Assembly (NCBI GenBank): GCA_035279865.1
Contig: DATEGY010000316.1
Span: 1-49,291 of the forward strand
Source of the DNA: Gemmatimonadales bacterium
GTDB lineage: Bacteria; Gemmatimonadota; Gemmatimonadetes; Gemmatimonadales; GWC2-71-9
Reading direction: 5' to 3'
DNA length: 49,291 nucleotides
Shown here one piece after another: positions 5,469 to 46,606 of the stretch (the first letter of the stretch is position 1; each line of letters begins with the position of its first letter). The position numbers and the translations under genes are program-made. The notes below the pieces were generated by a model, which saw only the letters and a list, made by a program, of their open reading frames with translations, was not told the origin of the DNA and ran no database searches.

Positions 5469-7039
5469 CGCCGGTACCGGTAGAGGGCGGCGCCGGACAC
5501 CGAGTCCGCGTACACGCGGGTCATCCCCGAGTCCGCCAGCGCGTGGAGCAGACTCGACGCTTCATCGCGGTAGGTCTGCGCAAACAGCAGCCAAACATCC
5601 GGCCCGCCGGCGCCCAGTATCCGGTGTGCCTCGTGCCCTGCCCACGCAGGATCGACGCTCGGCCGCGTGGCCCCGCCGGCCGGGAACCAGTCGATCCCGG
5701 TATAGTGCCCGATGATTTCGCGGCGCCCGTTGCGCGTGACGGTGAGATCTGCCTGCGGGGTGCCGCCGACCGTCACCAGGGCGGTCATCCAGGCCGAGTC
5801 CGGGTTGGTCCAATCAGTCGTGTAGATCACCCACGCGGGTACTGATCCCTGAAAGACGTACACGGGATCCCGGGGGTTCGCCCGGCCCTTCCAGTCGGAG
5901 ATCAGGTCACGCATCGCGGGCGTCCGGTACGGGTGACTGACGTTGACGGTGAGCAGCAGCAGCGCGACCAGGGCGCCGAGGCCGGGCACGGTGCTCCTGC
6001 CTCGGGGCCACCTCTGCCATGCTTCCGACAGCCAGGCGCCCACCGCGCCGATCCAGAGCGCGACGAGCGGCATGGTGAACTGGAGGAGGCGCCAGGAAAA
6101 AGGGTAGCGCCGGAATGACGAGGCGACGACCGTCATGACGACGGGCCCCGCGATCAGCCAGGTCCGTCCCCACCCCGTTCGCCGAACCAGCCAGATGATG
6201 CCGAGCAGGGCGACGAGGCAGAAGAGCGTCGCGGCGACGGCCGGAGACGGGCGCAGCAGCAGGGCCTCGAGAAAGCTGTTCCGCAGGATACCGTACGCCC
6301 GCCCATGGAAACCGAACGCCCGCGGGACGAGAAAATCCGGCGCCCAGAACCGCTGCATGAACGGGCTGCCGGCTGCGGTACGGTACATCCCCTGGTAGAT
6401 CGCCGCAAAGAGGCCGAGCCAGCACAGCGCGGCGAGACCGAGCCATGCCCATCGGGTCCTCCACTTGGCTATGGCGAGGCAGATCCCGATGGCGGCAAGG
6501 ACGAAGAGGGCCGGCGTTGAAAGGCACGCGGCGACGGCACCCGTCCCGATGAGCCACGCCCAGGAGCGACCGTCGTCGGTCTCTCTGGCGGTGAGCGCCC
6601 TGTCGAGGAGGACCACGGTGACGAGCGCGTCGAGGGCATACGGCTTCACGATCGCGCTGTATTGCACGAGGCCCGGGGCGAGTGCCACCACCAGACTCGC
6701 GAAAAGCGCCGCCCCTTCCGGCAAGATCCGGCGGGCGAGGCGCCAGAATGCCCAGGGTAAGAGCAGTCCGCCCAACAAGGGCAGCGCGCGGAGTGCGAGC
6801 TCGTTGACGCCGGCCACAACCGTCACGGCTTTCGTCAGCCACAAGTAGAGCGGAGGCGCGGTCTGGCCGTACTCGAGGGGCCGGAGCAGTCCCCCGAACG
6901 ACCTCGAGGCGATGCTGATGGACAGCATCGCCTCATCGAACGAGAACGAGGGCCGGCGGAAATACGGAATGAGGCGGGCTGCCGCGCCGATGAGGGTCAC
7001 CGCCACGACGCCACGCGGAAGACGGCTGGCCGGATTCAC
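5465..7039 (-). CDS. GT-C fold membrane glycosyltransferase, paralog A (524 aa, GTG start)
   Basis: In frame with track ORF 5465..7825, but starting at GTG 7039 (GTGA overlap with the upstream stop at 7036-7038). VNPASRLPRGVV...PYFRRPSFSFDEAMLSI...ELALRALPLLGG aligns along its length with the next gene. Confidence 0.7.
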   Translation of the reverse strand: MNPASRLPRGVVAVTLIGAAARLIPYFRRPSFSFDEAMLSISIASRSFGGLLRPLEYGQTAPPLYLWLTKAVTVVAGVNELALRALPLLGGLLLPWAFWRLARRILPEGAALFASLVVALAPGLVQYSAIVKPYALDALVTVVLLDRALTARETDDGRSWAWLIGTGAVAACLSTPALFVLAAIGICLAIAKWRTRWAWLGLAALCWLGLFAAIYQGMYRTAAGSPFMQRFWAPDFLVPRAFGFHGRAYGILRNSFLEALLLRPSPAVAATLFCLVALLGIIWLVRRTGWGRTWLIAGPVVMTVVASSFRRYPFSWRLLQFTMPLVALWIGAVGAWLSEAWQRWPRGRSTVPGLGALVALLLLTVNVSHPYRTPAMRDLISDWKGRANPRDPVYVFQGSVPAWVIYTTDWTNPDSAWMTALVTVGGTPQADLTVTRNGRREIIGHYTGIDWFPAGGATRPSVDPAWAGHEAHRILGAGGPDVWLLFAQTYRDEASSLLHALADSGMTRVYADSVSGAALYRYRR

Positions 7040-9642: not shown

Positions 9643-11256
9643 TCAGCGGTAGAACACTCCCGTCCCCAACGTCACGGCCCAGTGCTGTCCGGAGTGAATG
9701 AAGGGCCCCGCCCGGTATCCGACCGCAAACTCGATCACGTCCCCGCCAATGGACCGGGTCGGCCCCACCCGAAAGGCGACCCCCATGTCGGAGGCGGTCC
9801 GCGGCCTCTGAATGCCGTACCAGGCCCCGCCCCAGTCGAAGAACGGCGCGACGCCGAGCCCGAAGAGGCTCCACACTTCGCTCGCGATCGTAATCCGGTC
9901 ATCGAGCGCCAGCCAGACCATCCGTGAGCCCGTGAATACGTGTGCGCCGTAGAGCCGCGGTCCATTGCCGTCCCGCCAGAGGTCGAACTCGCCGCCCGGG
10001 GCCGTGCCCGTCACGGCGCCGCCCTCGAGATGGAAGATCAGAGTCTGGCTGGGAATGGAGGTGGTCACGGCGGTGAGCGCGGAGGTCACCCGGCCGGAGT
10101 CGAGGCCGGAGCGCGTGTACATCCCCAGTGCCTGCGCCCGGAGAGAGACGAACCCGCCTGGCCAGGCACCCGACAGCTGGAAGTGCGCGCGCGGTGCGAC
10201 GCCGGCGTGCGGTCCGTAGCCGAGACCGTTCGGAGCCACCCACACGCCCACGCCGGCCGTTTGGGAGAGATCGAGATCCTCGTGTCGTCCGAACGAGTTG
10301 AAATGCTCGATCTGGGCGTAGCGGACGTGGCTCCGCTCGGCGGCGATCCCGAACGATCCGTAGAAGTGGCGGGGGAACAGGCTGTCCGGGATTGGGATGA
10401 ACCCGGGGTTCCCTGGTAGCGAGTCGAGTTTGTAGTCCTCCCGGCGAAAGACGCTGGAGAGCGTTAGCCGCAGGTAGTCTCGAGACGTCGCGAGGGGTGC
10501 CCAGCCGGCGGTGTTGACCGAGATGAGGGCTTTCCGGTCGTACACAGCGCTCTTGCCGTTGTCTTTGAAGACGTTCACGAAGTTATGCGCCACCTCGTCC
10601 GAATCCTGGAGTGAATAACGGGCGGCGGTCTGGTAAAAGCCCTGTCCGTAGCTCCAAACGGTGCGCCTCCCGTCGGAGAGGTCGTCGTACTCGAGGTTCA
10701 AGGCGGTCCGCCGCGACAGGAACGCGGCATTCTGGTAGAGGAACGACAGGTTGTTGCGGTCAGGGTTGTGATGAAGGGCCACGGACAACGCGGTCGCCGT
10801 CCCCAGGAGATTCCGCTCCGTCGCGGACATCAGCCAGCTGACCGACTTGTCGGTGACGGAGTAGCCCAGATTGAGCGACGTACTCCACCCGTCTCCGGTG
10901 GTGACCCGGAGCGCGAAGCGATCGCCGACCCGCAGGGTGTCGAACTTCACGTCCCGGAAGACGCCCAGGTCCCGCAGCAGCCGCTCGCTCTCCACCACCT
11001 GCGCCGAGTCGTAGTGCATGCCCGGCTCGAGGAGGATGGTGCGGCGGATGACGTTGGCGCGGGTGGTCCGGTGGAGCGCGTTGACGAGTCCGGCGAGGAA
11101 CCCGGGCGCCTGGTCGGTGCTCGCGAAGATGTTGTGATTGACGACGATGATGGTGTCGATCACCGGTCCCGTCGTTTCGTCGTCCCGCGGCGCCTGCGCG
11201 CCCAGGTGGGTGGCGGCGGCGAAGCACAGCACGGCGACAGCCAAGGCTCGATTCAC
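9643..11256 (-). CDS. Omp85/BamA-family outer-membrane protein with one POTRA-like domain (537 aa)
   Basis: Signal peptide MNRALAVAVLCFAAATHLGAQA. POTRA-like segment (RRTILLEPGMHYDSAQVVESERLLRDLGVFRDV), then a long beta-barrel ending ...GTGVFYR. GTGA overlap with the upstream lipoprotein gene. Confidence 0.75.
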   Translation of the reverse strand: MNRALAVAVLCFAAATHLGAQAPRDDETTGPVIDTIIVVNHNIFASTDQAPGFLAGLVNALHRTTRANVIRRTILLEPGMHYDSAQVVESERLLRDLGVFRDVKFDTLRVGDRFALRVTTGDGWSTSLNLGYSVTDKSVSWLMSATERNLLGTATALSVALHHNPDRNNLSFLYQNAAFLSRRTALNLEYDDLSDGRRTVWSYGQGFYQTAARYSLQDSDEVAHNFVNVFKDNGKSAVYDRKALISVNTAGWAPLATSRDYLRLTLSSVFRREDYKLDSLPGNPGFIPIPDSLFPRHFYGSFGIAAERSHVRYAQIEHFNSFGRHEDLDLSQTAGVGVWVAPNGLGYGPHAGVAPRAHFQLSGAWPGGFVSLRAQALGMYTRSGLDSGRVTSALTAVTTSIPSQTLIFHLEGGAVTGTAPGGEFDLWRDGNGPRLYGAHVFTGSRMVWLALDDRITIASEVWSLFGLGVAPFFDWGGAWYGIQRPRTASDMGVAFRVGPTRSIGGDVIEFAVGYRAGPFIHSGQHWAVTLGTGVFYR

Positions 11257-11822
11257 TTCACTCCCTCGATGCGCTGTTTCAGCCGATAGGTCTGATGCAT
11301 CCCGCGGTCGTCCCAGGCGGTGAAATACAGGGTGACGTCGATGTGCCCGGTGATCTGCGCGATCCCCAGCCGTTCGAGCTCATACGTCCCCCGCACCGAA
11401 TCGGGCCGGACGGGGTGGCACAGACACGCCACCGTCGCGACCGCCGGAATGTCGGCACGAGCCGCTCCTACCGTGTAGGCCTTCCCGAGGCTGAGCTTGC
11501 GGGTGTCCCGGAAATCCAGCCCGAGCGTAAGCTCATAACCGGAGCCATCGGCGGGACTCCCGAAGTCGAACTTGGTCAACAGGACGTCGTGGCGTCCCGT
11601 CAGGCTGGTGTCCACTCGTAAACGCACGACGGTCAGCTTGGGATCCGTGTCCACCACGAGGCGGCCAGCGCTCCGCCACTCGGCATGAACTTGCTCGCCC
11701 TGCGTGTCCCCTGGCCTGGGCAGTAGTTCACAGCCAAAAATCGTCAAGAGGCAAGGCGTCAAGAGACAAAGCGTCGAGAGACCAGACGTGAGCGACGCGT
11801 AAAATGGATGACGGTTTTTCAG
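11253..11822 (-). CDS. putative lipoprotein, translationally coupled to the Omp85 gene; start uncertain
   Basis: Frame of track ORF 11253..11894. It contains ...LSTLCLLTPCLLTIFGC (lipobox-like IFGC). The canonical starts (ATG 11876, GTG 11894) overlap the divergent four-helix-bundle gene. A CTG at 11822 would give an ideal signal peptide, (M)KNRHPFYASL... The signal region is encoded by 15-nt repeat units. Confidence 0.5.
   Translation of the reverse strand: MKNRHPFYASLTSGLSTLCLLTPCLLTIFGCELLPRPGDTQGEQVHAEWRSAGRLVVDTDPKLTVVRLRVDTSLTGRHDVLLTKFDFGSPADGSGYELTLGLDFRDTRKLSLGKAYTVGAARADIPAVATVACLCHPVRPDSVRGTYELERLGIAQITGHIDVTLYFTAWDDRGMHQTYRLKQRIEGVK
11742..11801 (-). repeat. 15-nt tandem repeat array, reverse orientation (about 4 units)
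   Basis: cgtcaagaggcaagg / cgtcaagagacaaag / cgtcgagagaccaga / cgtgagcgacgcgta. These are reverse complements of the units at 12212-12280 and 46474-46606. Confidence 0.85.
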
Positions 11823-11844
11823 GGCAGACGTCCTAAGATAGCCC

Positions 11845-12213
11845 GTGCCCCTTCGCGCCAACGCGAGCCATCTCATGGTCCACCAAGTCGCCACGCAGGT
11901 CTCGGAAGAGGTCGCCAGGCTGGCTCGATCGTTTCGGGGTCCCGGAGCCTATGCGCGCGGCGACCAAATGGTCCGAGCGGCGCTCTCGGTGACATCAAAT
12001 ATCGCTGAAGCATGTGGACGTGGTACTGTACGGGAATTTCGGCGGTTCCTGCGTTACGCCCAAGGCTCAGCGCACGAGCTCCGATCTCAGCTGCAGACGT
12101 CACGTCGCCTTGATCCGATGTCAGCGCCTCAATTCAGAACGCTCGAGAGCCGGGTAGGGTTCGTGATAAAGGCGTTGTCACGGCTGTACGACCACCCGCC
12201 ACCGCAGAGCTGA
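11845..12213 (+). CDS. four-helix-bundle protein (23S rRNA intervening-sequence protein / S23p / Avd family)
   Basis: Family signature DQMVRAALSVTSNIAEACGRGTVREFRRFLRYAQGSAHELRSQL. GTG 11845 is preferred over ATG 11875 because family N-termini align with ...SHLMVHQVATQV. Confidence 0.8.
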   Translation: MPLRANASHLMVHQVATQVSEEVARLARSFRGPGAYARGDQMVRAALSVTSNIAEACGRGTVREFRRFLRYAQGSAHELRSQLQTSRRLDPMSAPQFRTLESRVGFVIKALSRLYDHPPPQS

Positions 12214-12280
12214 CGTCTTGTTTCTCGACGGTTTGCTTCTCGACGTCTTGTTTCTTGACGCCTTGTCTCTCGACGCCTTT
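12212..12280 (+). repeat. 15-nt tandem repeat array, forward orientation (4.6 units)
   Basis: gacgtcttgtttctc / gacggtttgcttctc / gacgtcttgtttctt / gacgccttgtctctc / gacgccttt. It fills the whole convergent intergenic gap between the four-helix-bundle gene and glnA. Confidence 0.9.
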
Positions 12281-12285
12281 GGCAT

Positions 12286-13611
12286 TTAGTACTGCCCGAG
12301 ATACCTCTGCAGCTCCCAGTCCGAGACGGTACCGATGTAATCCTCCCACTCCTCCCGCTTCGCCTCCACGAACCGTTCATAGATGTGCGGTCCGAGCGCC
12401 GCCTTGACGATTTCGTCCTTTTCCAAACACTCGAGCGCCTCGTGAAGATCCCGCGGCAGCTCGTCGATCCGGTACTTCCGCCGTTCCCGGTGGCTCATCT
12501 CGAAAATGTTCTTGTTCACGGGATCGGGGGGGGTGAGCTTCCGCTCCACGCCGTCGAGCCCTGCCGCGAGCTGCACCGCCAGCGCGAGGTAGGGATTGGC
12601 GGACGGGTCGGGCATCCGGAGCTCGCACCGCGTGCCGGGGCCGCGGCGGTCGGGGATCCGGATGAGCGGGGACCGGTTGCGCATGGACCAGGCGACGTTG
12701 ACCGGTGCCTCGTATCCTGGAACCAGCCGCTTATAGCTGTTGACCAGGGGGTTGGTGATGGCGCAGAACCCCCGCGCGTGCTGGAGGAGACCCGCGATGT
12801 AGGCGAGGGCGACCGCGGACAGCTCCCACTGGGCCCTGGCATCATGAAAGGCGTTCTTGCCCCCGGCGAAGAGCGATTGATGCGTGTGCATCCCCGAGCC
12901 GTTCTGGCCGAAGATCGGCTTGGGCATGAACGTGGCGAGGAAACCGTGGCGGTAGGCGACGTTGCGGACGATGAACCGGAAGGTCGCCAGGTTGTCCGCC
13001 GTTTCGAGCGCCTCCGCGTACCGGAAGTCGATCTCGTGCTGCCCCGGCGCCACCTCGTGATGCCCGGCCTCGACCTCGAACCCCATCGACACCAGGTCCC
13101 GTACGATCAGCCGCCGGATCTCCTCGGCCTTGTCCACCGGGGTCTGGTCGAAGTACCCGCCCGCATCGTGCGTGATGGTGGTGGGCGCTTCCGAGGCGTC
13201 GAGCTGAAAGATGAAGAACTCCGCCTCCACGCCGGCCATCATGGCGTACCCGGCGTCCCTGGCCCGGGCGATCTGGCGCTTCAAGGCCAGCCGGGGACAG
13301 CCCGCGAACGCCGACCCGTCCGGGTTGTAGATGTCGCAGATGATGCGCGCGACCGTGCCCCCTTCGTCGCCGCCGGGCAGCACGCGGAAGGTCTCGAGAT
13401 CGGGTTTGAGTACCATGTCCGACTCTTCGATCCGGACGAAGCCCTCGATCGACGAGCCGTCGAACATGATGTCCCCTTCGAGGGCCTTTTCGAACTGGCT
13501 CTCGGGGACCTCGACGTTCTTGTTGACGCCCAGAATGTCGGTGAATTGCAGGCGCAGGAACGAGACACCTTGCTTTTTGGCCAGGTCCAGAACTTCGCGT
13601 TTGGTCGTCAT
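12286..13611 (-). CDS. glnA: glutamine synthetase, type I-alpha (Bacillus-like, 441 aa)
   Basis: FLRLQFTDILGVNKNVEVP...MFDGSSIEGFVRIEESDM...ARIICDIYNPDGS closely follows the GSI-alpha pattern. Confidence 0.9.
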   Translation of the reverse strand: MTTKREVLDLAKKQGVSFLRLQFTDILGVNKNVEVPESQFEKALEGDIMFDGSSIEGFVRIEESDMVLKPDLETFRVLPGGDEGGTVARIICDIYNPDGSAFAGCPRLALKRQIARARDAGYAMMAGVEAEFFIFQLDASEAPTTITHDAGGYFDQTPVDKAEEIRRLIVRDLVSMGFEVEAGHHEVAPGQHEIDFRYAEALETADNLATFRFIVRNVAYRHGFLATFMPKPIFGQNGSGMHTHQSLFAGGKNAFHDARAQWELSAVALAYIAGLLQHARGFCAITNPLVNSYKRLVPGYEAPVNVAWSMRNRSPLIRIPDRRGPGTRCELRMPDPSANPYLALAVQLAAGLDGVERKLTPPDPVNKNIFEMSHRERRKYRIDELPRDLHEALECLEKDEIVKAALGPHIYERFVEAKREEWEDYIGTVSDWELQRYLGQY

Positions 13612-13627
13612 GGGAGGCGGTTAGTTA

Positions 13628-13677
13628 TTAGGCGGTTAGTCGGTTAGCAAGACCACACTAACCGACTAACCGCCTAA
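13628..13677 (-). other. perfect 20-bp stem / 10-nt loop hairpin between the two GS genes
   Basis: ttaggcggttagtcggttag-caagaccaca-ctaaccgactaaccgcctaa. The arms are built from reiterated cggttag heptamers. There is no U-tract on either strand. Confidence 0.8.
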
Positions 13678-13688
13678 CCACTGACAAC

Positions 13689-15161
13689 TCACACGTCGTA
13701 GTACAGGAAGAACTCGTACGGATGCGGCCGCAGCGCCACCGGGTCGACCTCCTTGGCCTTCTTGTAGGCAAGCCACGTGTCGATCAGGTCCCGCGTGAAC
13801 ACGCCCCCTTCGAGCAGGAACTGGTGATCCGCCTGCAGCGCCGCCAGGGATTCCTGCAGGCTTCCGGGGGTGTTCTTCACGTGCTTCCGCTCTTCCGGCT
13901 CGAGCTCGTACAGGTCCACGTCCATCGGTTTGGGCGGCTCGATCCTGTTCTTCACGCCATCGAGGCCGGCCATGAGGAGCGCCGCGAACGTGAGGTACGG
14001 GTTCGCCGACGGGTCGGGCGCCCGGAACTCGATGCGCTTCGCCTTCGGCGACGTCGAATACATGGGGATACGGCAGATGGCCGACCGGTTCCGCTGGGAA
14101 TAGATGAGGTTGATCGGGGCTTCGTAGCCCGGCACCAGACGGCGGTAGCTGTTGGTGGTCGGGGCCGCGAAGGCCAGCACCGCGGGAGCGTGCTTGATGA
14201 GGCCGCCGATGTACCAGCGGGCGGTGTCCGAGAGCAGCGCGTAGCCCTTGGGATCGAAGAACAGATTGGTATCCTGGTTCCAGAGGCTCATGTGCACGTG
14301 CATACCGGACCCGTTGTCGCCGAACATGGGCTTGGGCATGAACGTCGCCGTATAACCGTGCTGGTCGCACACGTTCTTCACGATGTACTTGTAGATCAGT
14401 ACCTGATCCGCCATCCGGGTCAGCGTGCCGAACTTCATGTCGATTTCGGTCTGTCCCGCCGTGCCCACTTCGTGATGGTGGACTTCCACGTCGATACCCG
14501 CCTGCATGAGCGCCAGCATGATCTTCGAGCGGAGATCCTGGAGCTTGTCCACCGGCGGGACCGGGAAGTAGCCCTCCTTGTGCCGCGGCCGGTGCCCGGG
14601 ATTGGGAGTGCCGTTCCGGCCCGAGTTCCAGATGCCTTCGTCGGAGTCGATGTGGTAGTAGCCCTCGTGCGCGTTCTGGTCGAACCGCACCGAGTTGAAA
14701 ATGTAGAACTCCGCTTCCGGCCCGCAGTACACCGTCGTCGCGATCCCGCTTCGCACCAGATACTCCTCGGCCTTCTGCGCCACGTAGCGCGGGTCGCGCG
14801 AGTACCGCTCCCGGGTGATGGGGTCCACGATGTCGCACGTGAGCGAGAGGGTGGGGACCTGGAGGCAGGGGTCCACGAACGCGCTCGCGGGATCGGGGAT
14901 CAGGAGCATGTCACTCTCGTTGATCGCCTGGAATCCGCGGATCGACGACCCGTCGAACCCCAGCCCGTCTTCGAACACGTCCTCGGTGAGGTGCTTCACC
15001 GGAATCGAGAAGTGCTGCCAGGTGCCGGGCAGGTCGCAGAAACGGACGTCGACCACCTGCACCCCGGCCTCGTGGGCCCGGCGGATGACGTCTGTGGGAG
15101 ATGTACCGGCAGCGGTGCGTCCGGTGGTCGATCGGGTGATGGGCTCCATCGTCGCTGTCAT
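13689..15161 (-). CDS. glnA: glutamine synthetase, type I-beta (enterobacterial type, 490 aa)
   Basis: Start ATG 15161 with GGAGGAG 8 nt upstream, internal to track ORF 13689..15299. VDVRFCDLPGTWQHFSIP...FDGSSIRGFQAINESDM... The adenylylation-loop Tyr context is conserved (MDVDLYELEPEE). Confidence 0.9.
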   Translation of the reverse strand: MTATMEPITRSTTGRTAAGTSPTDVIRRAHEAGVQVVDVRFCDLPGTWQHFSIPVKHLTEDVFEDGLGFDGSSIRGFQAINESDMLLIPDPASAFVDPCLQVPTLSLTCDIVDPITRERYSRDPRYVAQKAEEYLVRSGIATTVYCGPEAEFYIFNSVRFDQNAHEGYYHIDSDEGIWNSGRNGTPNPGHRPRHKEGYFPVPPVDKLQDLRSKIMLALMQAGIDVEVHHHEVGTAGQTEIDMKFGTLTRMADQVLIYKYIVKNVCDQHGYTATFMPKPMFGDNGSGMHVHMSLWNQDTNLFFDPKGYALLSDTARWYIGGLIKHAPAVLAFAAPTTNSYRRLVPGYEAPINLIYSQRNRSAICRIPMYSTSPKAKRIEFRAPDPSANPYLTFAALLMAGLDGVKNRIEPPKPMDVDLYELEPEERKHVKNTPGSLQESLAALQADHQFLLEGGVFTRDLIDTWLAYKKAKEVDPVALRPHPYEFFLYYDV

Positions 15162-15298
15162 GCGGGGGTCTCCTCCGGGGTCGCAGTGGAAGCGGAAATA
15201 CGAAGGGCCCGAGCGGATGAGCGTCGGGCCCCGAAAATTCCTGTCAGGGTGTTTGCGGCAGGCATGCGGCAAGGTATGGTGGTCATGCGGTGCTGTCA

Positions 15299-15314
15299 AG
15301 CAAAATCTGCACCA
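15299..15314 (-). promoter_or_regulatory. sigma54-type promoter candidate upstream of GSI-beta glnA
   Basis: Reverse strand reads TGGTGC-AGATT-TTGCT, with exact -24 GG / -12 GC spacing, about 140 nt upstream of ATG 15161. Confidence 0.4.
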
Positions 15315-15378
15315 GATGCAATAAATCCGTCTAAATCGGCATTTCGATCTCCAAAATGTTCATTGCTGATCGACAAAC

Positions 15379-15395
15379 TGTGCACGTGATGCACA
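15379..15395. promoter_or_regulatory. perfect palindrome TGTGCA-N5-TGCACA (NtrC/enhancer-binding-protein-like site)
   Basis: tgtgcacgtgatgcaca lies about 85 bp upstream of the sigma54-like element. Its TGCA/GCAC half-sites resemble NtrC sites. A related TGCACCAGATGCA occurs at 15308-15320. Confidence 0.35.
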
Positions 15396-15419
15396 ATTTC
15401 GATGTCATACAGCTACACC

Positions 15420-15746
15420 TCACCGTGGCTCCAGCGCTTCAAGGAAATGCCACAACTCCACAGCCGAAAATTCACCGAAACGCTCCGAGATCTCCTGCGC
15501 GCCGGCTTCCAGGAAGATCCAGCCGGTGGTCCGCTGGTCGCCGGGCGCCACAAAGTGGATCCGGCCACGCACGGAGGCCCGGTCCTCCGTCGGTTCGGAT
15601 TCGAGGTAAACGTCCCAGCGGCGCTCCCCCCGGCGCAGCTCACCCATGTGACGCGAGTGATCCCGGCCGGGGAACGGATTGGTCATGCCGTACAGACTAC
15701 GCTCCCTCAGGAATTCCTGCCAGTTAGATTCTTGGCGCGATGACAT
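15420..15746 (-). CDS. hypothetical protein (108 aa)
   Basis: Balanced, protein-like composition (…WDVYLESEPTEDRASVRGRIHFVAPGDQRTTGWIFLEAG…), better than the overlapping + frame. The start may instead be the internal Met at 15686. Confidence 0.45.
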   Translation of the reverse strand: MSSRQESNWQEFLRERSLYGMTNPFPGRDHSRHMGELRRGERRWDVYLESEPTEDRASVRGRIHFVAPGDQRTTGWIFLEAGAQEISERFGEFSAVELWHFLEALEPR

Positions 15747-27442: not shown

Positions 27443-27482
27443 GGAAAAATCGAAGCCCCCGGGTGGTTACCCACCCGGGGGC
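27443..27482 (-). terminator. strong intrinsic terminator (12-bp GC stem, 4-nt loop, U-tract on the minus strand)
   Basis: gcccccgggtgg-ttac-ccacccgggggc, followed on the minus strand by ttcgatttttcc. Confidence 0.8.
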
Positions 27483-27991
27483 CCCGCGCACCGGCTACCC
27501 GGAGCCAAGGGATTTACTCCCTCGTTCTTCTTCCCGCCGCCGCCGGTTGACTGTTGCGTCATTCGGTAGGGCGAACAGGAGCTCCGGCTTCGATCCCCAA
27601 GCAGCCTGGCCAGGCCACGAGGTTCACCAGTGTGAGTGCTGCGGGTCAGATCGGGTCGCGGACCGACCTTCCGCACTGCACGCCGAGGCACTACTTCGAC
27701 GTGGATGAAGCACGCGACTGGCTCCATCTGTCCGAGCCGGAGAGAGCACTCTCCCGGATCAGCGGGCGCCTGAGCCCTTGTTTGCATCGGCGCCCTCCCC
27801 GGAATTTCCGCCCGGACCCACCTTAAAGGCGTTGTGGAAGCGCTGGGCCTCCACCCTTCCCCTCAAGGCGCGTGAGAGGCAATATAGAGGTGCCGGAAAG
27901 CGGCGCAAGTGCCGATGTTTCTTCGGGTTAGCTCACTTCGATGTGCACGGGATGTGGAACCTAAGACGCGGGCAAATCGTCTGTTCTGGGG

Positions 27992-28041
27992 TTCATCCAC
28001 ACAATGTGGAGTTGTGTATCCACAGTGTGCACGTTCCCACA
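27992..28041. promoter_or_regulatory. cluster of four DnaA-box-like 9-mers
   Basis: tcATCCACA (27993-28001), TGTGGAgtt (28005-28013, reverse), gTATCCACA (28016-28024) and gTTcCCACA (28033-28041), compared with TTATCCACA. Boxes 1 and 2 form the palindrome TCCACA-caa-TGTGGA. Confidence 0.4.
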
Positions 28042-28042
28042 T

Positions 28043-28582
28043 CTAGGGGTTGGGGTGAGGTAGTACCACCGGGCGCACCGGTAACCCAGCGGACTTCACA
28101 AACGCGGCCCGTGCACCGTCGAACCGGTGAAGGGCTTGCGTGAGCTCGGTGACGCGATAGGGGCCCCACGCCCGGAGCGTGTCGGCGCGGTCGTCCGTGC
28201 GAGGGAGTGGTTGCCAGTCGCGCACACAACGCTCCAGCGCGGCGACCGTCTCTTCCGACGCAGCGCGAAGCTTGGCCTGACTGCGAACGGCCGTCGGTAC
28301 AGTAGAAACGGTCCGCGCCGCGAGCATGCCCTGAAGCCGGCGCATGGAACTGACGCCGGAAGCGCACGCGCTCTGCACGGATGTCGCCCGGGCCAGTACC
28401 ATGGTCGGCGAGGCGGTCTGGAGATCGTTCCGGAAGGCCTGGGTGAACCCGCGCAGCATGTCCAGCGTGTCGGCGGTGGCATTCACGGCATCCCCGTAGC
28501 GGCGCAAGACCGTGCTGTCGGGGACCTGCGGGAATACGGGCGCGACGAGCGCGCCCCAGAGCGGCACCCAGAGTGGAAGCAT
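28043..28582 (-). CDS. secreted hypothetical protein (179 aa)
   Basis: Start MLPLWVPLWGALVAPVFPQ at ATG 28582 (TGATG overlap with the upstream gene). Only the C-terminal part of track ORF 28043..29080 is protein-like. Confidence 0.6.
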   Translation of the reverse strand: MLPLWVPLWGALVAPVFPQVPDSTVLRRYGDAVNATADTLDMLRGFTQAFRNDLQTASPTMVLARATSVQSACASGVSSMRRLQGMLAARTVSTVPTAVRSQAKLRAASEETVAALERCVRDWQPLPRTDDRADTLRAWGPYRVTELTQALHRFDGARAAFVKSAGLPVRPVVLPHPNP

Positions 28583-29202
28583 CAGGAGTCGATACCGACT
28601 TCGCAGTACGTGAAGGGCTCGCCCGGCTGCGGCGGCAGGAAGAGACAACCGGCCCCGCTGGTGGCGAACCAGCCCGAGAGGAGTTGCGTCGAGTGACTGC
28701 CGACCGGTTCCGCGAACAGAGCCTGGATCCACCGCCGGACGTGACGCAACTCGGGGGCCCGGCGGGACAGCATGCTGAGCACGGCGCCCAGACCCTGCGT
28801 GGCCCTGAGGAAGTGTGCGACCGCATGGACCCGCTGGGTGAAGATGTAGGCCCGGACGCCCGGCTCGTCGTACAGCAGAGTGCCCTCGTACGGGTCGGCG
28901 GGCGGAGCATCCATTTGGGGACCGAAGTAAACGTAAAGCCGGGCGTCGCCGTCCCGGCGTTCCACCACCGCGGCCGCCGCGTCCGCGCTCACCCGCGCCG
29001 CGTGCAAGAGGTCGTCCTCGGCCAGAATGCCGACCGCCGCCGTCCACTCGATGGCCGCGAGGGCCTGGTCGAGGGGACACCCCACCGTGTCGTCGAACGC
29101 CAGCAGGCGCGGTGCTTCCCCTGCCCGCTGGAAGAAGTGGGCGAGGGCGTCGGCCCGGTCGTCGAAGGTACGGACAATTCGCGAGGTTGCGGGAACCGTC
29201 AT
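28582..29202 (-). CDS. hypothetical protein (206 aa)
   Basis: Start MTVPATSRIVRTFDDRADALAHFF at ATG 29202. Protein-like composition with no recognisable motif. Confidence 0.6.
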   Translation of the reverse strand: MTVPATSRIVRTFDDRADALAHFFQRAGEAPRLLAFDDTVGCPLDQALAAIEWTAAVGILAEDDLLHAARVSADAAAAVVERRDGDARLYVYFGPQMDAPPADPYEGTLLYDEPGVRAYIFTQRVHAVAHFLRATQGLGAVLSMLSRRAPELRHVRRWIQALFAEPVGSHSTQLLSGWFATSGAGCLFLPPQPGEPFTYCEVGIDS

Positions 29203-29258
29203 TGCGTGATTATAACCCTGTGCCAGTAGCCCAGACAGACCTTGTTCAGGAGAAGCGA

Positions 29259-29804
29259 ATGCGTCGACTCGTCGTGTTGCTGAGTATGGCCGGAGCCATT
29301 GTGGCTGCGCCACTGGCCGCCCAGGACAGCACGCCCGCGCCCAAACCGGCCGACTCCACACATGCCGACTCGACGCCGCCCCCTCCCACGCCGGAACAGC
29401 AGAAGTGGATGCAGGGCCTCCGCACGGCTGCGCGCGGGATCGGGCAGATCAAGAGCGGCATCGAGAGCGTGCAGCGCGCCGGCACCAGCACCAAAGAGCT
29501 CAGGCGCGCCGGGAAACTTCTCGCAGGCTTCTGCGGCACGGGGCGCGGCTTCATGCGCACGGGCGTCGCGAAGATGCCCTCCGCGGCCTATGAGGGCGAC
29601 AACCGGAAGATCGCCCGTCAGGTCGTCATTCAGATCGACTCGGTCGCCCGCGCAACGAATACCTGCGAAGCGCAGGCGGCGCGCGATCCCAAGACGTCGG
29701 TTGAGCATCTCATGCCCTTCCTTCAAAGCTACGAGGCCGCCGTCGCCGCCTGGCGGAGCATGATCGGCCTCCCACCCCTCACGACACGAGCGACAAAGCC
29801 ATAA
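29259..29804 (+). CDS. secreted hypothetical protein (181 aa)
   Basis: ATG 29259 after AGGAGAA. Signal peptide MRRLVVLLSMAGAIVAAPLAAQ, a Pro/Thr-rich linker, and a two-Cys helical domain. Confidence 0.65.
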   Translation: MRRLVVLLSMAGAIVAAPLAAQDSTPAPKPADSTHADSTPPPPTPEQQKWMQGLRTAARGIGQIKSGIESVQRAGTSTKELRRAGKLLAGFCGTGRGFMRTGVAKMPSAAYEGDNRKIARQVVIQIDSVARATNTCEAQAARDPKTSVEHLMPFLQSYEAAVAAWRSMIGLPPLTTRATKP

Positions 29805-29923
29805 GATATTCCCCTATATCGTTTTATAGTTCCACTGAAACATTGATGTATCAATGATGTCGTGATTAAGCCAGATGATCTGAATAGTCGCGCAAACCGT
29901 TCGCGCGTGGTCGCTTACCGTTA

Positions 29924-29952
29924 TTGACACCCTCCGAAGCCACCTCTACTTT
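29924..29952 (+). promoter_or_regulatory. sigma70-like promoter for cspA
   Basis: TTGACA, 17 nt, TACTTT. It predicts a 5' UTR of about 150 nt, as is usual for cold-shock genes. Confidence 0.45.
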
Positions 29953-30108
29953 TGGCCGCGGTTCAAGCAAGACGTGGCACCGTCACCGGTTGGACTGCGC
30001 ACCGCGAGAACCACAGGTCTCGCGGTTTTTGTTTGAGCCCGACACTGATCGCGGTGGTCAGCGTCGCACCATTCCGGGGCAGTGCCCCTCAGTTCGAGGA
30101 TGCAACAG

Positions 30109-46216: not shown

Positions 46217-46421
46217 CGCGATCCAGATGATGGGAACGGTAACCGAGGTGTTGCCCAACACCACGTTCCGCGTGAAGCTCGAAAACGGCCACGACGTCCT
46301 GGCGTACGTCTCTGGAAAAATGCGGAAGAACTACATCCGCATCCTCCAGGGGGACCGCGTCGCCGTCGATCTCTCACCGTACGATCTCACCCGCGGAAGA
46401 ATCACGTACCGCTACAAGTAA
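46206..46421 (+). CDS. infA: translation initiation factor IF-1
   Basis: GTG 46206 gives (M)[70 protein letters not shown], 71 aa. This is colinear with canonical IF-1. A GAGG SD lies upstream. Confidence 0.9.
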
Positions 46422-46433
46422 CAGAACAAAATG

Positions 46434-46606
46434 CGTCGAGAAACACAACGTCGAGAAACAATGCGTGTAGTTCCACGCCCTGCTTCTCGACGTTTTGTCT
46501 CTTGACGCCTTGTCTCTTGACGTCTTGCTTCTCGACGTTTTGTCTCTTGACGCCTTGTCTCTTGACGCCTTGTCTCTTGACGCCTTGCTTCTCGACGCCT
46601 TTTCTA
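46434..46606 (+). repeat. 15-nt tandem repeat array: 2 reverse units, 10-nt centre, 9 forward units
   Basis: cgtcgagaaacacaa/cgtcgagaaacaatg – cgtgtagttc – cacgccctgcttctc/gacgttttgtctctt/gacgccttgtctctt/gacgtcttgcttctc/gacgttttgtctctt/gacgccttgtctctt/gacgccttgtctctt/gacgccttgcttctc/gacgccttttcta. It fills the convergent infA / TonB-receptor gap exactly. Confidence 0.9.

Follow-up and report, generated by a model that had tools for sequence, protein, structure and literature searches.

A four-helix-bundle gene between inverted arrays of a dispersed 15-nt repeat in a Gemmatimonadales genome, and its possible partnership with that repeat

A gene for a four-helix-bundle (4HB) protein of the 23S rRNA intervening sequence (IVS) family lies between inverted tandem arrays of a short repeat on a Gemmatimonadales chromosome, and this arrangement of a gene between inverted arrays is a family-wide layout that recurs in four phyla. 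The evidence is that 4HB genes and repeat arrays are physically coupled across phyla; in Gemmatimonadales and Xanthomonas the repeat at the flanks is moreover the genome's own dispersed repeat. The reading preferred here, which is given an even chance of being right, is that of an IVS-type cassette outside rRNA in which a basic protein that forms rings and the repeat hairpins cognate to it would act as partners, in the manner of RAYTs and REPINs. The window, i.e. the whole stretch of DNA analysed (49,291 nt), was found to contain no rRNA or other Rfam family at either the gathering or a permissive threshold, and no reverse transcriptase, transposase or integrase was present among its called genes. 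The features discussed are the following.

11253-11894, minus strand: lipoprotein ORF, start codon uncertain
11734-11801, no strand assigned: left (upstream) array, pairing with the right array in the MFE fold
11802-11844, plus strand: conserved spacer from the left array to the start codon
11845-12213, plus strand: 4HB gene, 122 aa, PF05635/TIGR02436 (23S rRNA IVS protein, S23p; related to DGR Avd)
12212-12282, plus strand: right (downstream) array, four 15-nt GACG-first units and a partial unit, GACGCCTTTGG
12286-13611, minus strand: glnA, downstream neighbour of the right array
46434-46606, no strand assigned: ORF-less hairpin of the same 15-nt repeat family, bounded by AAAA and TTTT

The building block of both arrays (11742-11801 and 12212-12282) is the 15-nt unit GACGYCTTGYYTCTY, the two arrays being reverse complements of each other. 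The left array is bordered by an A-run (CCAAAAAT, 11734-11741) and reads on the plus strand as CGTC-first units at 11742-11756, 11757-11771 and 11772-11786, followed by a degenerate fourth unit at 11787-11801. The right array consists of four full units (12212-12271) plus an incomplete one (12272-12282); it shares bases with the stop codon of the 4HB gene, and its far end is 3 nt short of the stop of glnA. TRF reported 3.0 copies with 83% matches for the left array and 4.5 copies with 81% matches for the right. Allowing up to two mismatches, 17 matches to the unit were counted in the window (0.58 expected; 0 of 100 shuffles reached 17), and all except three single ones fall within the cassette and the 46434-46606 locus. 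Sequence, TRF and consensus scan thus agree on the inverted 15-nt arrays that the initial annotation had placed around the 369-bp gene, and its unit-by-unit match counts (13/15, 12/15 and 9/15) were obtained again on recomputation.

The 4HB protein matches PF05635 (E 1.7e-23, 83.3 bits, cutoff 33.8) and TIGR02436 (83.3 bits, cutoff 24). Both scores exceed the curated cut-offs, which bears out the earlier assignment of the enclosed gene to the 23S-IVS/Avd four-helix-bundle family. The protein is strongly basic (pI 11.4) and matches PDB 2GSC (E 1.4e-9). The AF2 monomer model (pLDDT 94) is a four-helix up-down bundle resembling XCC0516 and BT_0352, with helices predicted at 11-27, 35-57, 62-89 and 91-116 and TM values of 0.86 to 2GSC and 0.77 to 2RLD. 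The conserved family motif GxxRxxxSxxxNxxE (PMC3936711) is present as R44-x3-S48-x3-N52-x2-E55; in an alignment of 42 sequences S48, N52 and E55 are invariant and R44 is nearly so. More than 160 homologues were found in Gemmatimonadales. RNase activity through a HEPN-like Rx4-6H motif was considered for the stretch RYAQGSAH of the window protein; this motif is not conserved in L030, L040, L032 or XCC0516, and no RNase activity is therefore claimed.

In the RNAfold structure of positions 11730-12290 both arrays pair, imperfectly and over about 50 bp, into a long stem that closes the ORF (-246 kcal/mol; z = -7.2 against 100 dinucleotide shuffles). The cassette accordingly has the terminal inverted repeats and enclosing stem of an IVS, and the long stem that had been envisaged around the ORF is stable on folding. 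Which transcripts would carry it depends on the start region. The spacer at 11802-11844 holds a GCGTAAAATGGATGACGG block common to the window and the SMAG_U11872 orthologue, and a -10-like TAAGAT lies at 11834-11839, 5 nt ahead of the GTG start; TANNNT-like boxes occur 5-6 nt before the start, at the same distance, in five aligned orthologous upstream regions. This box may act as promoter, in which case the 4HB mRNA would be leaderless. The mRNA may then begin downstream of the left array and lack it, so that the stem would form only in read-through or antisense transcripts. A consensus sigma-70 scan gave no match at the cassette, and a terminator consensus scan flagged no site there. Among the arm mismatches G:U is not in excess over A:C (28 G:U, 34 A:C, 62 other); a strand-specific RNA pairing signature was rejected on this count, and nothing shows selection for pairing within one particular transcript.

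The same repeat forms a hairpin between the convergent infA (stop at 46421) and a TonB-dependent receptor gene (stop at 46604). Its left arm (46434-46467) comprises two and a half CGTC-first units, its loop spans 46468-46473, and 46474-46606 holds the right arm together with an unpaired tandem extension of about 6 units, giving about 8.5 GACG-first units altogether. As had been described, this hairpin encloses no ORF; its fold has a z of -5.8. Positional counterparts, likewise beside infA, were found in L014, L056 and L055. At gene 3' ends some 20 more hairpins of the window's unit, again without an ORF, were located, which fits the earlier suggestion of filled and empty versions of one element. 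The ORF-less hairpins have GGCGTC...GACGCC bases, A/T runs and TTTT borders, and none was found between divergent genes. A simple terminator scan flagged two minus-strand sites in 46434-46478; the stems are far longer than those of canonical intrinsic (rho-independent) terminators. The similarity between flank and dispersed arrays of one genome is 0.91 for the window, 0.94 in SMAG_U11872 (L005 against L002) and 0.90 for L037 (10366-10409 against 755-800), the last compared with 0.66-0.85 to other lineages. The comparison of the L029 flank with the L055 array, on one contig, gave a similarity of 0.74 that was not the best match and is ambiguous.

The 4HB gene at the glnA site is old, vertically inherited across Gemmatimonadales and under purifying selection. 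In six other lineages the cassette stands in the same place (lipoprotein, 4HB, glnA-glnA), and the order Omp85-like, lipoprotein, 4HB, glnA, glnA is kept in L027/28, L029, L030/31, L037-39 and L040/41. For the 4HB gene, dN/dS values of 0.06-0.23 were obtained at saturated dS. The idea that the cassette had recently entered an existing hairpin was rejected because cassette and arrays are syntenic in lineages at only 61-67% protein identity. Unit and period of the flank arrays turn over between lineages (13 nt in L027, L029 and L037; 14 nt in L040; 15 nt in the window, L005 and L030), and the arrays are inverted, tandem and CGTC/GACG-cored throughout. Despite the saturated dS, the window and SMAG_U11872 retain one 15-nt unit. 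The best relative of the window genome in the genome collection has 76-83% DNA identity; among relatives, array copy number and unit differ, so that the lack of polymorphism which the initial annotation had named as refuting is not observed.

The layout was then compared across the family in 38 4HB genes sampled from Gemmatimonadales, Xanthomonadales, cyanobacteria, Azospirillum and IMG/VR contigs. Flank complementarity was scored by Watson-Crick local alignment against a null of 1500 gene-sized pseudo-gene placements. This replaced RNAduplex with mononucleotide shuffles, under which purine-rich and pyrimidine-rich arms go on pairing, so that it served poorly as a control. The window cassette scored 54 (null maximum 30), and 26 of the 38 genes (16/24 and 10/14) exceeded all 1500 placements; clear inverted flanks are missing in 8-12 of the 38. 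The association of inverted tandem arrays with 4HB genes elsewhere extends to Gemmatimonadales orthologues and paralogues and to distant 4HB genes of the other sampled groups, against the refuting condition that the initial annotation had set. The arrays mostly have about four heptamers. A universal rule of purine-rich upstream arms was rejected, since it is true of most loci and fails in several IMG/VR loci. In Xanthomonas (L048), GGGAATC occurs at both 4HB flanks and at four further sites within 20 kb, and the gene of the crystallised X. campestris protein XCC0516 is flanked by this published dispersed repeat, being adjoined by repeat #15 of the PMC4692102 supplement. The Xanthomonas arrays lie on average 28 nt past the ORF upstream of them, the majority comprising 4 units.

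The closest known system is the 23S rRNA IVS of Leptospira and Coxiella burnetii (Ralph & McClelland 1993; PMC4990558), which shares the PF05635 protein and the inverted-repeat stem enclosing the ORF. The likeness drawn earlier to this architecture holds: in Coxiella, tandem GACAGAT heptamers of strain-variable copy number stand directly upstream of the S23p ORF, and a 28-bp terminal stem is cut by RNase III (PMC4990558). The window cassette differs in lying outside rRNA, whereas IVSs are inserted in helix 9, 25 or 45 of 23S rRNA; it stands antisense between protein-coding genes (lipoprotein and glnA), and its arms are arrays of about 60 nt of 15-nt units instead of a 28-bp stem. Its ORF is under strong purifying selection, whereas that of Coxiella is decaying and apparently untranslated, and its repeat is dispersed also as ORF-less hairpins.

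Related to this family is Avd of diversity-generating retroelements (DGRs; PDB 4DWL, 8UB7), a barrel of five subunits that is positively charged and binds a structured RNA, the Avd-binding element; XCC0516 is likewise a pentamer. The window protein has the homologous fold (TM about 0.63 to Avd), but the window has neither the reverse transcriptase nor the TR/VR pair of DGRs. A DGR reading was rejected on these grounds, the repeats being short tandem units and the genuine DGR avd on pANA02 having no flanking inverted arrays.

In its genomic logic the cassette resembles REPIN/RAYT systems, whose proteins are reportedly REP-associated tyrosine transposases. Both have one vertically inherited gene with a palindromic repeat on its flanks that is also dispersed in the same genome, intergenic hairpin repeats, and a repeat sequence that shifts between lineages along with the gene flanks. 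Membership of REP/REPIN-RAYT was rejected, because the flanked gene encodes a 122-aa four-helix bundle without an HUH/Y1 nuclease domain and not a Y1 (IS200-like) transposase; the repeats, furthermore, are inverted tandem arrays and not a single REP doublet.

Dispersed tandem arrays form another class for comparison, to which the cyanobacterial STRR repeats belong. Heptamer SSR arrays (GGGAATC in Xanthomonas, GGGGA(C/T)T in Nostoc) were read as G-quadruplex elements and were not tied to a 4HB gene (PMC4692102). Like the window arrays they are intergenic, usually of about 4 units, and often convergent inverted pairs close behind the 3' end of an upstream ORF; units of the window type are 13-15 nt and not 7 nt, and are not G4-prone.

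In the preferred reading, the cassette is a 4HB gene within inverted, lineage-specific tandem arrays and belongs to a genome-wide family of hairpins of the same repeat. The basic 4HB protein would be expected to form a pentameric ring, as do XCC0516 and Avd, and this ring would act in trans on its cognate arrays. The likeliest mode would be binding of the tandem units as RNA (or DNA), with roughly one unit per protomer. TRAP and HutP are ring proteins that read tandem RNA repeats. They have no homology to the 4HB protein; the proposed principle, a homo-oligomeric ring on evenly spaced repeats controlling an alternative hairpin, is alike. The usual copy number of about four, and not five, equals the stem length of 28 bp for RNase III and so gives no specific support for one unit per protomer. 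In cis, the paired arrays would form long stems looping the ORF out of read-through or antisense transcripts, and such stems could be substrates of the RNase III type, as in 23S IVSs. At other genes the array hairpins may serve as bidirectional terminators or 3'-end hairpins, and the arrays beside the protein's own gene may provide feedback control. Slippage would alter array copy number, and fit to the protein, or copying from the cassette, would keep the units uniform within a genome.

An alternative, considered unlikely, is a selfish mobile element, of which the 4HB cassette would be the autonomous IVS/MITE-like form and the ORF-less hairpins non-autonomous derivatives. It would have spread by a DNA- or RNA-mediated route into hairpin loops, intergenic spacers and rRNA helices with the arrays as termini, its insertions being harmless because the array stem is excised or tolerated. 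Cassettes are indeed wedged in unrelated sites across taxa (between cas6 and cas4, nrdB and nrdA, parA and parB, accB and accC, and in 23S helices), and ORF-less copies of the window's unit are many. The accB-accC site is nevertheless shared across families (Xanthomonas and Dyella), the cassette occupies a single fixed syntenic site throughout the order Gemmatimonadales under strong purifying selection, and the arrays of Xcc and Xac are 90% positionally conserved. Some genomes have several cassette copies (L032, L034), but these belong to larger duplicated modules. The GC3 of the 4HB gene is low (0.64 versus 0.78-0.88 in its neighbours), and in a relative one end of a 3.1-kb deletion coincides with the array, both in favour of mobility. 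In comparison with MITEs and IS elements, inverted termini are present. Target-site or direct duplications were not seen at the hairpin borders, because the flanks there continue the palindrome (A-run/T-run), and transposase, integrase and RT are absent from the window, both of which speak against mobility.

A purely cis-acting RNA is less probable still. The arrays would then matter only as a double-stranded stem, which as an RNase III site or a terminator would insulate an antisense or intra-operon gene; the protein would have some other role in the cell and make no contact with the repeats, and the dispersed hairpins would be terminator-type repeats of the clade. The stable stem on folding agrees with this, as do RNase III cleavage of the equivalent 28-bp Coxiella stem, the typical arm of 4 x 7 = 28 bp, which suits an RNase III substrate, and the position of hairpins with T-runs at gene 3' ends. 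It leaves unexplained why one gene family is enclosed by the genome's own dispersed repeat in four phyla, and why the arms are tandem arrays instead of any inverted repeat; the lack of a G:U bias and the possible absence of the stem from the 4HB gene's own mRNA in the window also speak against it. Coincidence, in which a 4HB gene would lie by chance between two of the slippage-prone intergenic repeats common in the genome, could appeal to the other arrays of the window's genome and to the partial constraint of the left array by an overlapping signal-peptide coding region, but is effectively refuted by the flank tests, as 0 of 1500 random gene-sized placements match the complementarity of the 26 genes, which come from independent lineages, and the arrays persist at the orthologous gene though their sequence changes.

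A wider form of the partnership is proposed tentatively, with somewhat less confidence than the preferred reading of the window. Free-standing TIGR02436 4HB proteins would be dedicated partners of the dispersed short-tandem-repeat arrays of many bacteria (Xanthomonas GGGAATC, cyanobacterial STRR-type heptamers, Gemmatimonadales 13-15-mers), with each ring specific for the repeat beside its own gene. Across the genome the arrays would act as a network of cis elements, or as a sequence population, which the protein reads, maintains or spreads, and 23S IVSs would be this system within rRNA. Two puzzles of about 30 years, the role of the 23S IVS ORF (S23p, a 4HB family with thousands of members) and the purpose of dispersed heptamer and tandem arrays in Xanthomonas, cyanobacteria and other bacteria, are merged by the coupling into one testable hypothesis. 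Were the partner reading true, the S23p family and the heptamer arrays would each gain a function. The coupling also explains how small 4HB genes can stand harmlessly within essential operons (accBC, nrd, cas, par) and within rRNA. No paper linking 4HB genes to arrays was found in the open full-text literature (subscription-only papers were outside the scope). A test can already draw on the crystal structure of XCC0516 and on the GGGAATC arrays that have been catalogued.

Caution is advised in annotation, as arrays are open to being mis-called as CDS. Gene callers carry lipoprotein orthologues on through the array, and in the window the overlap with signal-peptide coding is real. The left array is traversed by the predicted signal-peptide coding region of the lipoprotein ORF, whose lipobox Cys codon corresponds to the reverse complement of 11730-11732, and the sequence directly past the array (G-C followed by (E/D)L(L/F)PRPGDT) is conserved in five lineages. 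The left array is thereby under an extra constraint outside the model, from the signal peptide encoded on the opposite strand.

A four-helix-bundle (4HB) gene lies between two inverted arrays of a 15-nt repeat, and the same repeat forms an ORF-less hairpin elsewhere in the window. The initial annotation, which described both, was borne out in every detail.

Cassette and hairpin in the window
11742-11801, CGTC-first on the + strand: left array, three good 15-nt units and a fourth that is degenerate
11845-12213, + strand: 4HB ORF, 122 aa, between the two arrays
12212-12282, GACG-first: right array, four full units and a partial fifth
46434-46606: ORF-less hairpin between the stops of the convergent infA and TonB-dependent receptor genes, about six extra unpaired units on the right side

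The two arrays are reverse complements of each other. The consensus GACGYCTTGTYTCTY (≤2 mismatches) has 17 matches in the window against 0.58 expected, nearly all at the cassette and at 46434-46606. When 11730-12290 is folded as RNA, the arrays pair into a long imperfect stem round the ORF (z = -7.2). The ORF scores far over the cut-offs of PF05635 (23S_rRNA_IVP; E 1.7e-23) and TIGR02436 ('four helix bundle protein'). Its product is very basic (pI 11.4) and matches Xanthomonas campestris XCC0516 (PDB 2GSC) with E 1.4e-9. AlphaFold predicts a four-helix bundle (pLDDT 94), whose TM scores are 0.86 against 2GSC, 0.77 against BT_0352 (2RLD) and ~0.63 against Avd of diversity-generating retroelements (DGRs). 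The gene is thus a member of the PF05635/TIGR02436 family, and all family features testable here are present.

The setting is ordinary and chromosomal, with a G+C content of 66.7% and genes for two glutamine synthetases, an Omp85-like protein, glycosyltransferases, response regulators, an MCP, a signal peptidase and others. Neither rRNA nor any other Rfam family was found in the window, nor any reverse transcriptase, transposase, integrase or phage gene. The nearest genomes are Gemmatimonadales MAGs, the best relative having 76-83% DNA identity. No confident gene was called from GC3 at 5561-7036 and 27466-30049; between 27.5 and 30 kb the listing has nothing but overlapping ORFs, 150-345 aa long. 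The 4HB gene is antisense between glnA and a lipoprotein gene, and the glnA stop lies 3 nt past the right array. On the minus strand the left array is read as part of the predicted hydrophobic signal-peptide region (…LSTLCLLTPCLLTIFG-C; 11733-~11876) of the lipoprotein gene, the lipobox Cys codon being the reverse complement of 11730-11732. In five lineages this Cys and (E/D)L(L/F)PRPGDT directly follow the array, although the array units differ (ELLPRPGDT in the window). Upstream of the second glnA, a palindrome (TGTGCACGTGATGCACA, 15378-15396) in an AT-rich stretch resembles an NtrC-type enhancer site.

Exact two-unit patterns of the 15-nt repeat were scanned in 185,579 species genomes and the JGI metagenomes. 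This yielded 26 loci, all within a narrow Gemmatimonadales clade. Three are the orthologous 4HB cassette (window, SMAG_U11872 and L025; 85% protein identity). The remainder are mainly hairpins without an ORF, arranged head to head and always ordered as reverse-complement units and then units; each arm has 2-9 units and the loops are short. A minority are one-sided arrays without an inverted partner (e.g. L008, L016, L021/L024 and L022). By a rough GC3-based gene call the hairpins lie between convergent genes or, in tandem pairs, just past the 3' end of the first gene; divergent genes have none between them. The hairpin bases have the sequence AAAA-GGCGTC ... GACGCC-TTTT, and a simple scan flagged terminator-like motifs within 46434-46478. 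The "empty" versions of the element that had been proposed were found, as hairpins of the same 15-nt unit at gene 3' ends. In L010 (1493-1560) and L012 (598-700) the unit lies in an apparent ORF and reads as a pentapeptide repeat, (EKQDV)n.

Within one genome, the 4HB flanks and the ORF-less hairpins carry the same unit, with similarity 0.91 in the window and 0.94 in SMAG_U11872. In L037, another Gemmatimonadales locus, a solo array 9 kb away is built of the 13-nt flank unit GACGCCTCTCCTC (similarity 0.90, against 0.66-0.85 to other lineages). The infA-adjacent hairpin or array is also present in relatives with TonB receptors of 81%, 73% and 57% identity, with units of 15 nt (L014), 13 nt (L056) or mixed 13/15 nt (L055). 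The L055 array, on the contig of the L029 cassette, has an ambiguous similarity of 0.74 to the L029 flanks.

More than 160 4HB homologues of 55-79% identity occur in Gemmatimonadales. All five of the lineages P0012, P0017, P0033, P0026 and P0039 (61-67% identity) have the gene at the same site, in the order Omp85-like, lipoprotein, 4HB, glnA, glnA. Judged from these sequence comparisons, the cassette is old and not a recent insertion. A selfish mobile element of IVS or MITE type is an unlikely reading, if the foremost alternative. With synonymous sites saturated, the 4HB gene has a dN/dS of 0.06-0.23; its protein is thus functional and under selection.

Inverted tandem arrays bracket every one of the inspected orthologues, and their units have turned over between lineages. 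The unit is 13 nt long in L027, L029 and L037; in L040 it has 14 nt and a TACG core, and in L030 15 nt and a different spacer. Left and right copy numbers are ~4 and 4.5 in the window and ~5 and 3 in SMAG_U11872. These two are separated by a dS of ~1.9 yet share one 15-nt unit, which implies constraint or homogenisation. The 4HB gene has a GC3 of 0.64, compared with 0.78-0.88 for adjoining genes; values for orthologues (0.63-0.76) and for Xanthomonas (0.65) are low as well, although the gene has long been inherited vertically. SMAG_U11872 (L005, 5414/5423) and L025 lack both glutamine synthetase genes here (window 12265-15423). The 3.1-kb difference from SMAG_U11872 stops precisely where the right array ends on its outer side, and the small gene found from window 15424 onwards there abuts the cassette. 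In other Gemmatimonadales, at L032 (1600-6900) and L034 (8400-13800), ~780-bp 4HB cassettes with 13-nt CGTCGAACAACAC arrays occur in 2-3 copies, 78-87% identical, inside an RHS-repeat/DUF7003 locus with repeated rhs core-end fragments in the style of orphan toxin modules, beside a sigma-54 activator.

The layout extends across the family. Searches of plasmids by tblastn gave 4HB genes of 30-40% identity in Azospirillum and on ten cyanobacterial plasmids, wedged into pairs such as cas6|cas4 (L043, L045), nrdB|nrdA (L044) and parA|parB (L046) and flanked by inverted arrays of 6-7-nt units (e.g. AGGTGAC, TAGGGAG, AAGGGA, AGGGTGT). X. campestris and Dyella share an accB-4HB-accC arrangement (L048, L049), with flanks of GGGAATC x4.4 and reverse complement x4.3 in the former and AGGGAAT x4.0 and reverse complement x3.9 in the latter. 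GGGAATC occurs at four further sites within the 20-kb Xanthomonas locus. As a dispersed repeat it has been described before, with 186 arrays in Xcc, 70 of them convergent inverted pairs; the arrays mostly have four units and lie on average 28 nt behind the upstream ORF (PMC4692102). Repeat #15 of the supplementary table there sits, without comment, at the XCC0516 start codon (PMC4692102).

The 130-nt upstream flank was scored by local Watson-Crick alignment against the downstream flank in reverse complement. At 1500 gene-sized placements chosen at random the score averaged 16.8 and peaked at 30. Scores were 33-68 for 16 of 24 4HB genes and above 30 for 10 of 14 in an independent IMG/VR sample, where heptamers in ~4 copies were again seen. 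Coincidence is effectively excluded by these scores over the null maximum. A true DGR avd gene scored 17. Plasmid pANA02 of Anabaena sp. 90 (L047; 10109-10176 and 43494-45003) carries both a DGR (avd and RT) and a free 4HB cassette. No inverted arrays flank its avd; the only repeat there is a short tandem one of 9 nt, between this gene and the RT gene. The array upstream of the cassette is ~300 bp, and another AGGTGAC array lies between cas1 and cas4.

The cassette is of IVS type and lies outside rRNA; its arms are arrays of a 15-nt unit, and ORF-less copies are dispersed. It has the same gene and stem-around-ORF design as a 23S rRNA intervening sequence, and is not one because the defining location in rRNA is lacking. 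It is not a DGR, there being no reverse transcriptase in the window, and it is not a REP-associated transposase (RAYT). In the Coxiella IVS, three tandem GACAGAT heptamers, variable in copy number, precede the S23p ORF, and RNase III cuts the 28-bp terminal stem (PMC4990558). Zhang et al. reported 4HB genes within cas loci and took the position as functional association (PMC3936711); the flanking arrays suggest instead that these are cassettes lodged in operons.

The 4HB protein and its arrays may form a partnership like that of RAYTs and their REPIN repeats. The relatives XCC0516 and Avd are pentameric rings, and Avd binds a defined RNA element; by analogy, a 4HB ring is proposed to bind the cognate tandem units. 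On this model dsRNA stems would arise from paired arrays, with the ORF looped out of read-through or antisense transcripts in the manner of IVS and RNase III, and at other genes the paired arrays would serve as bidirectional terminators or 3'-end hairpins. A ring on one arm could modulate these structures and feed back on the 4HB gene itself. We give even odds to action of the protein on the arrays; any specific outcome (antitermination, protection, spreading) is far more doubtful. Against the model, no G:U bias is seen in the array arms, the 4HB mRNA may lack a leader and with it the left array, and the typical four units correspond to an RNase III-sized stem and not to five protomers. As a rival, a stem that acts purely in cis, with a protein unrelated to it, is rather improbable. 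A family-wide partnership of 4HB protein and repeat, more novel than the classification of the cassette, is put at somewhat under an even chance; no paper linking the family to tandem-repeat arrays was found in the open full-text literature.
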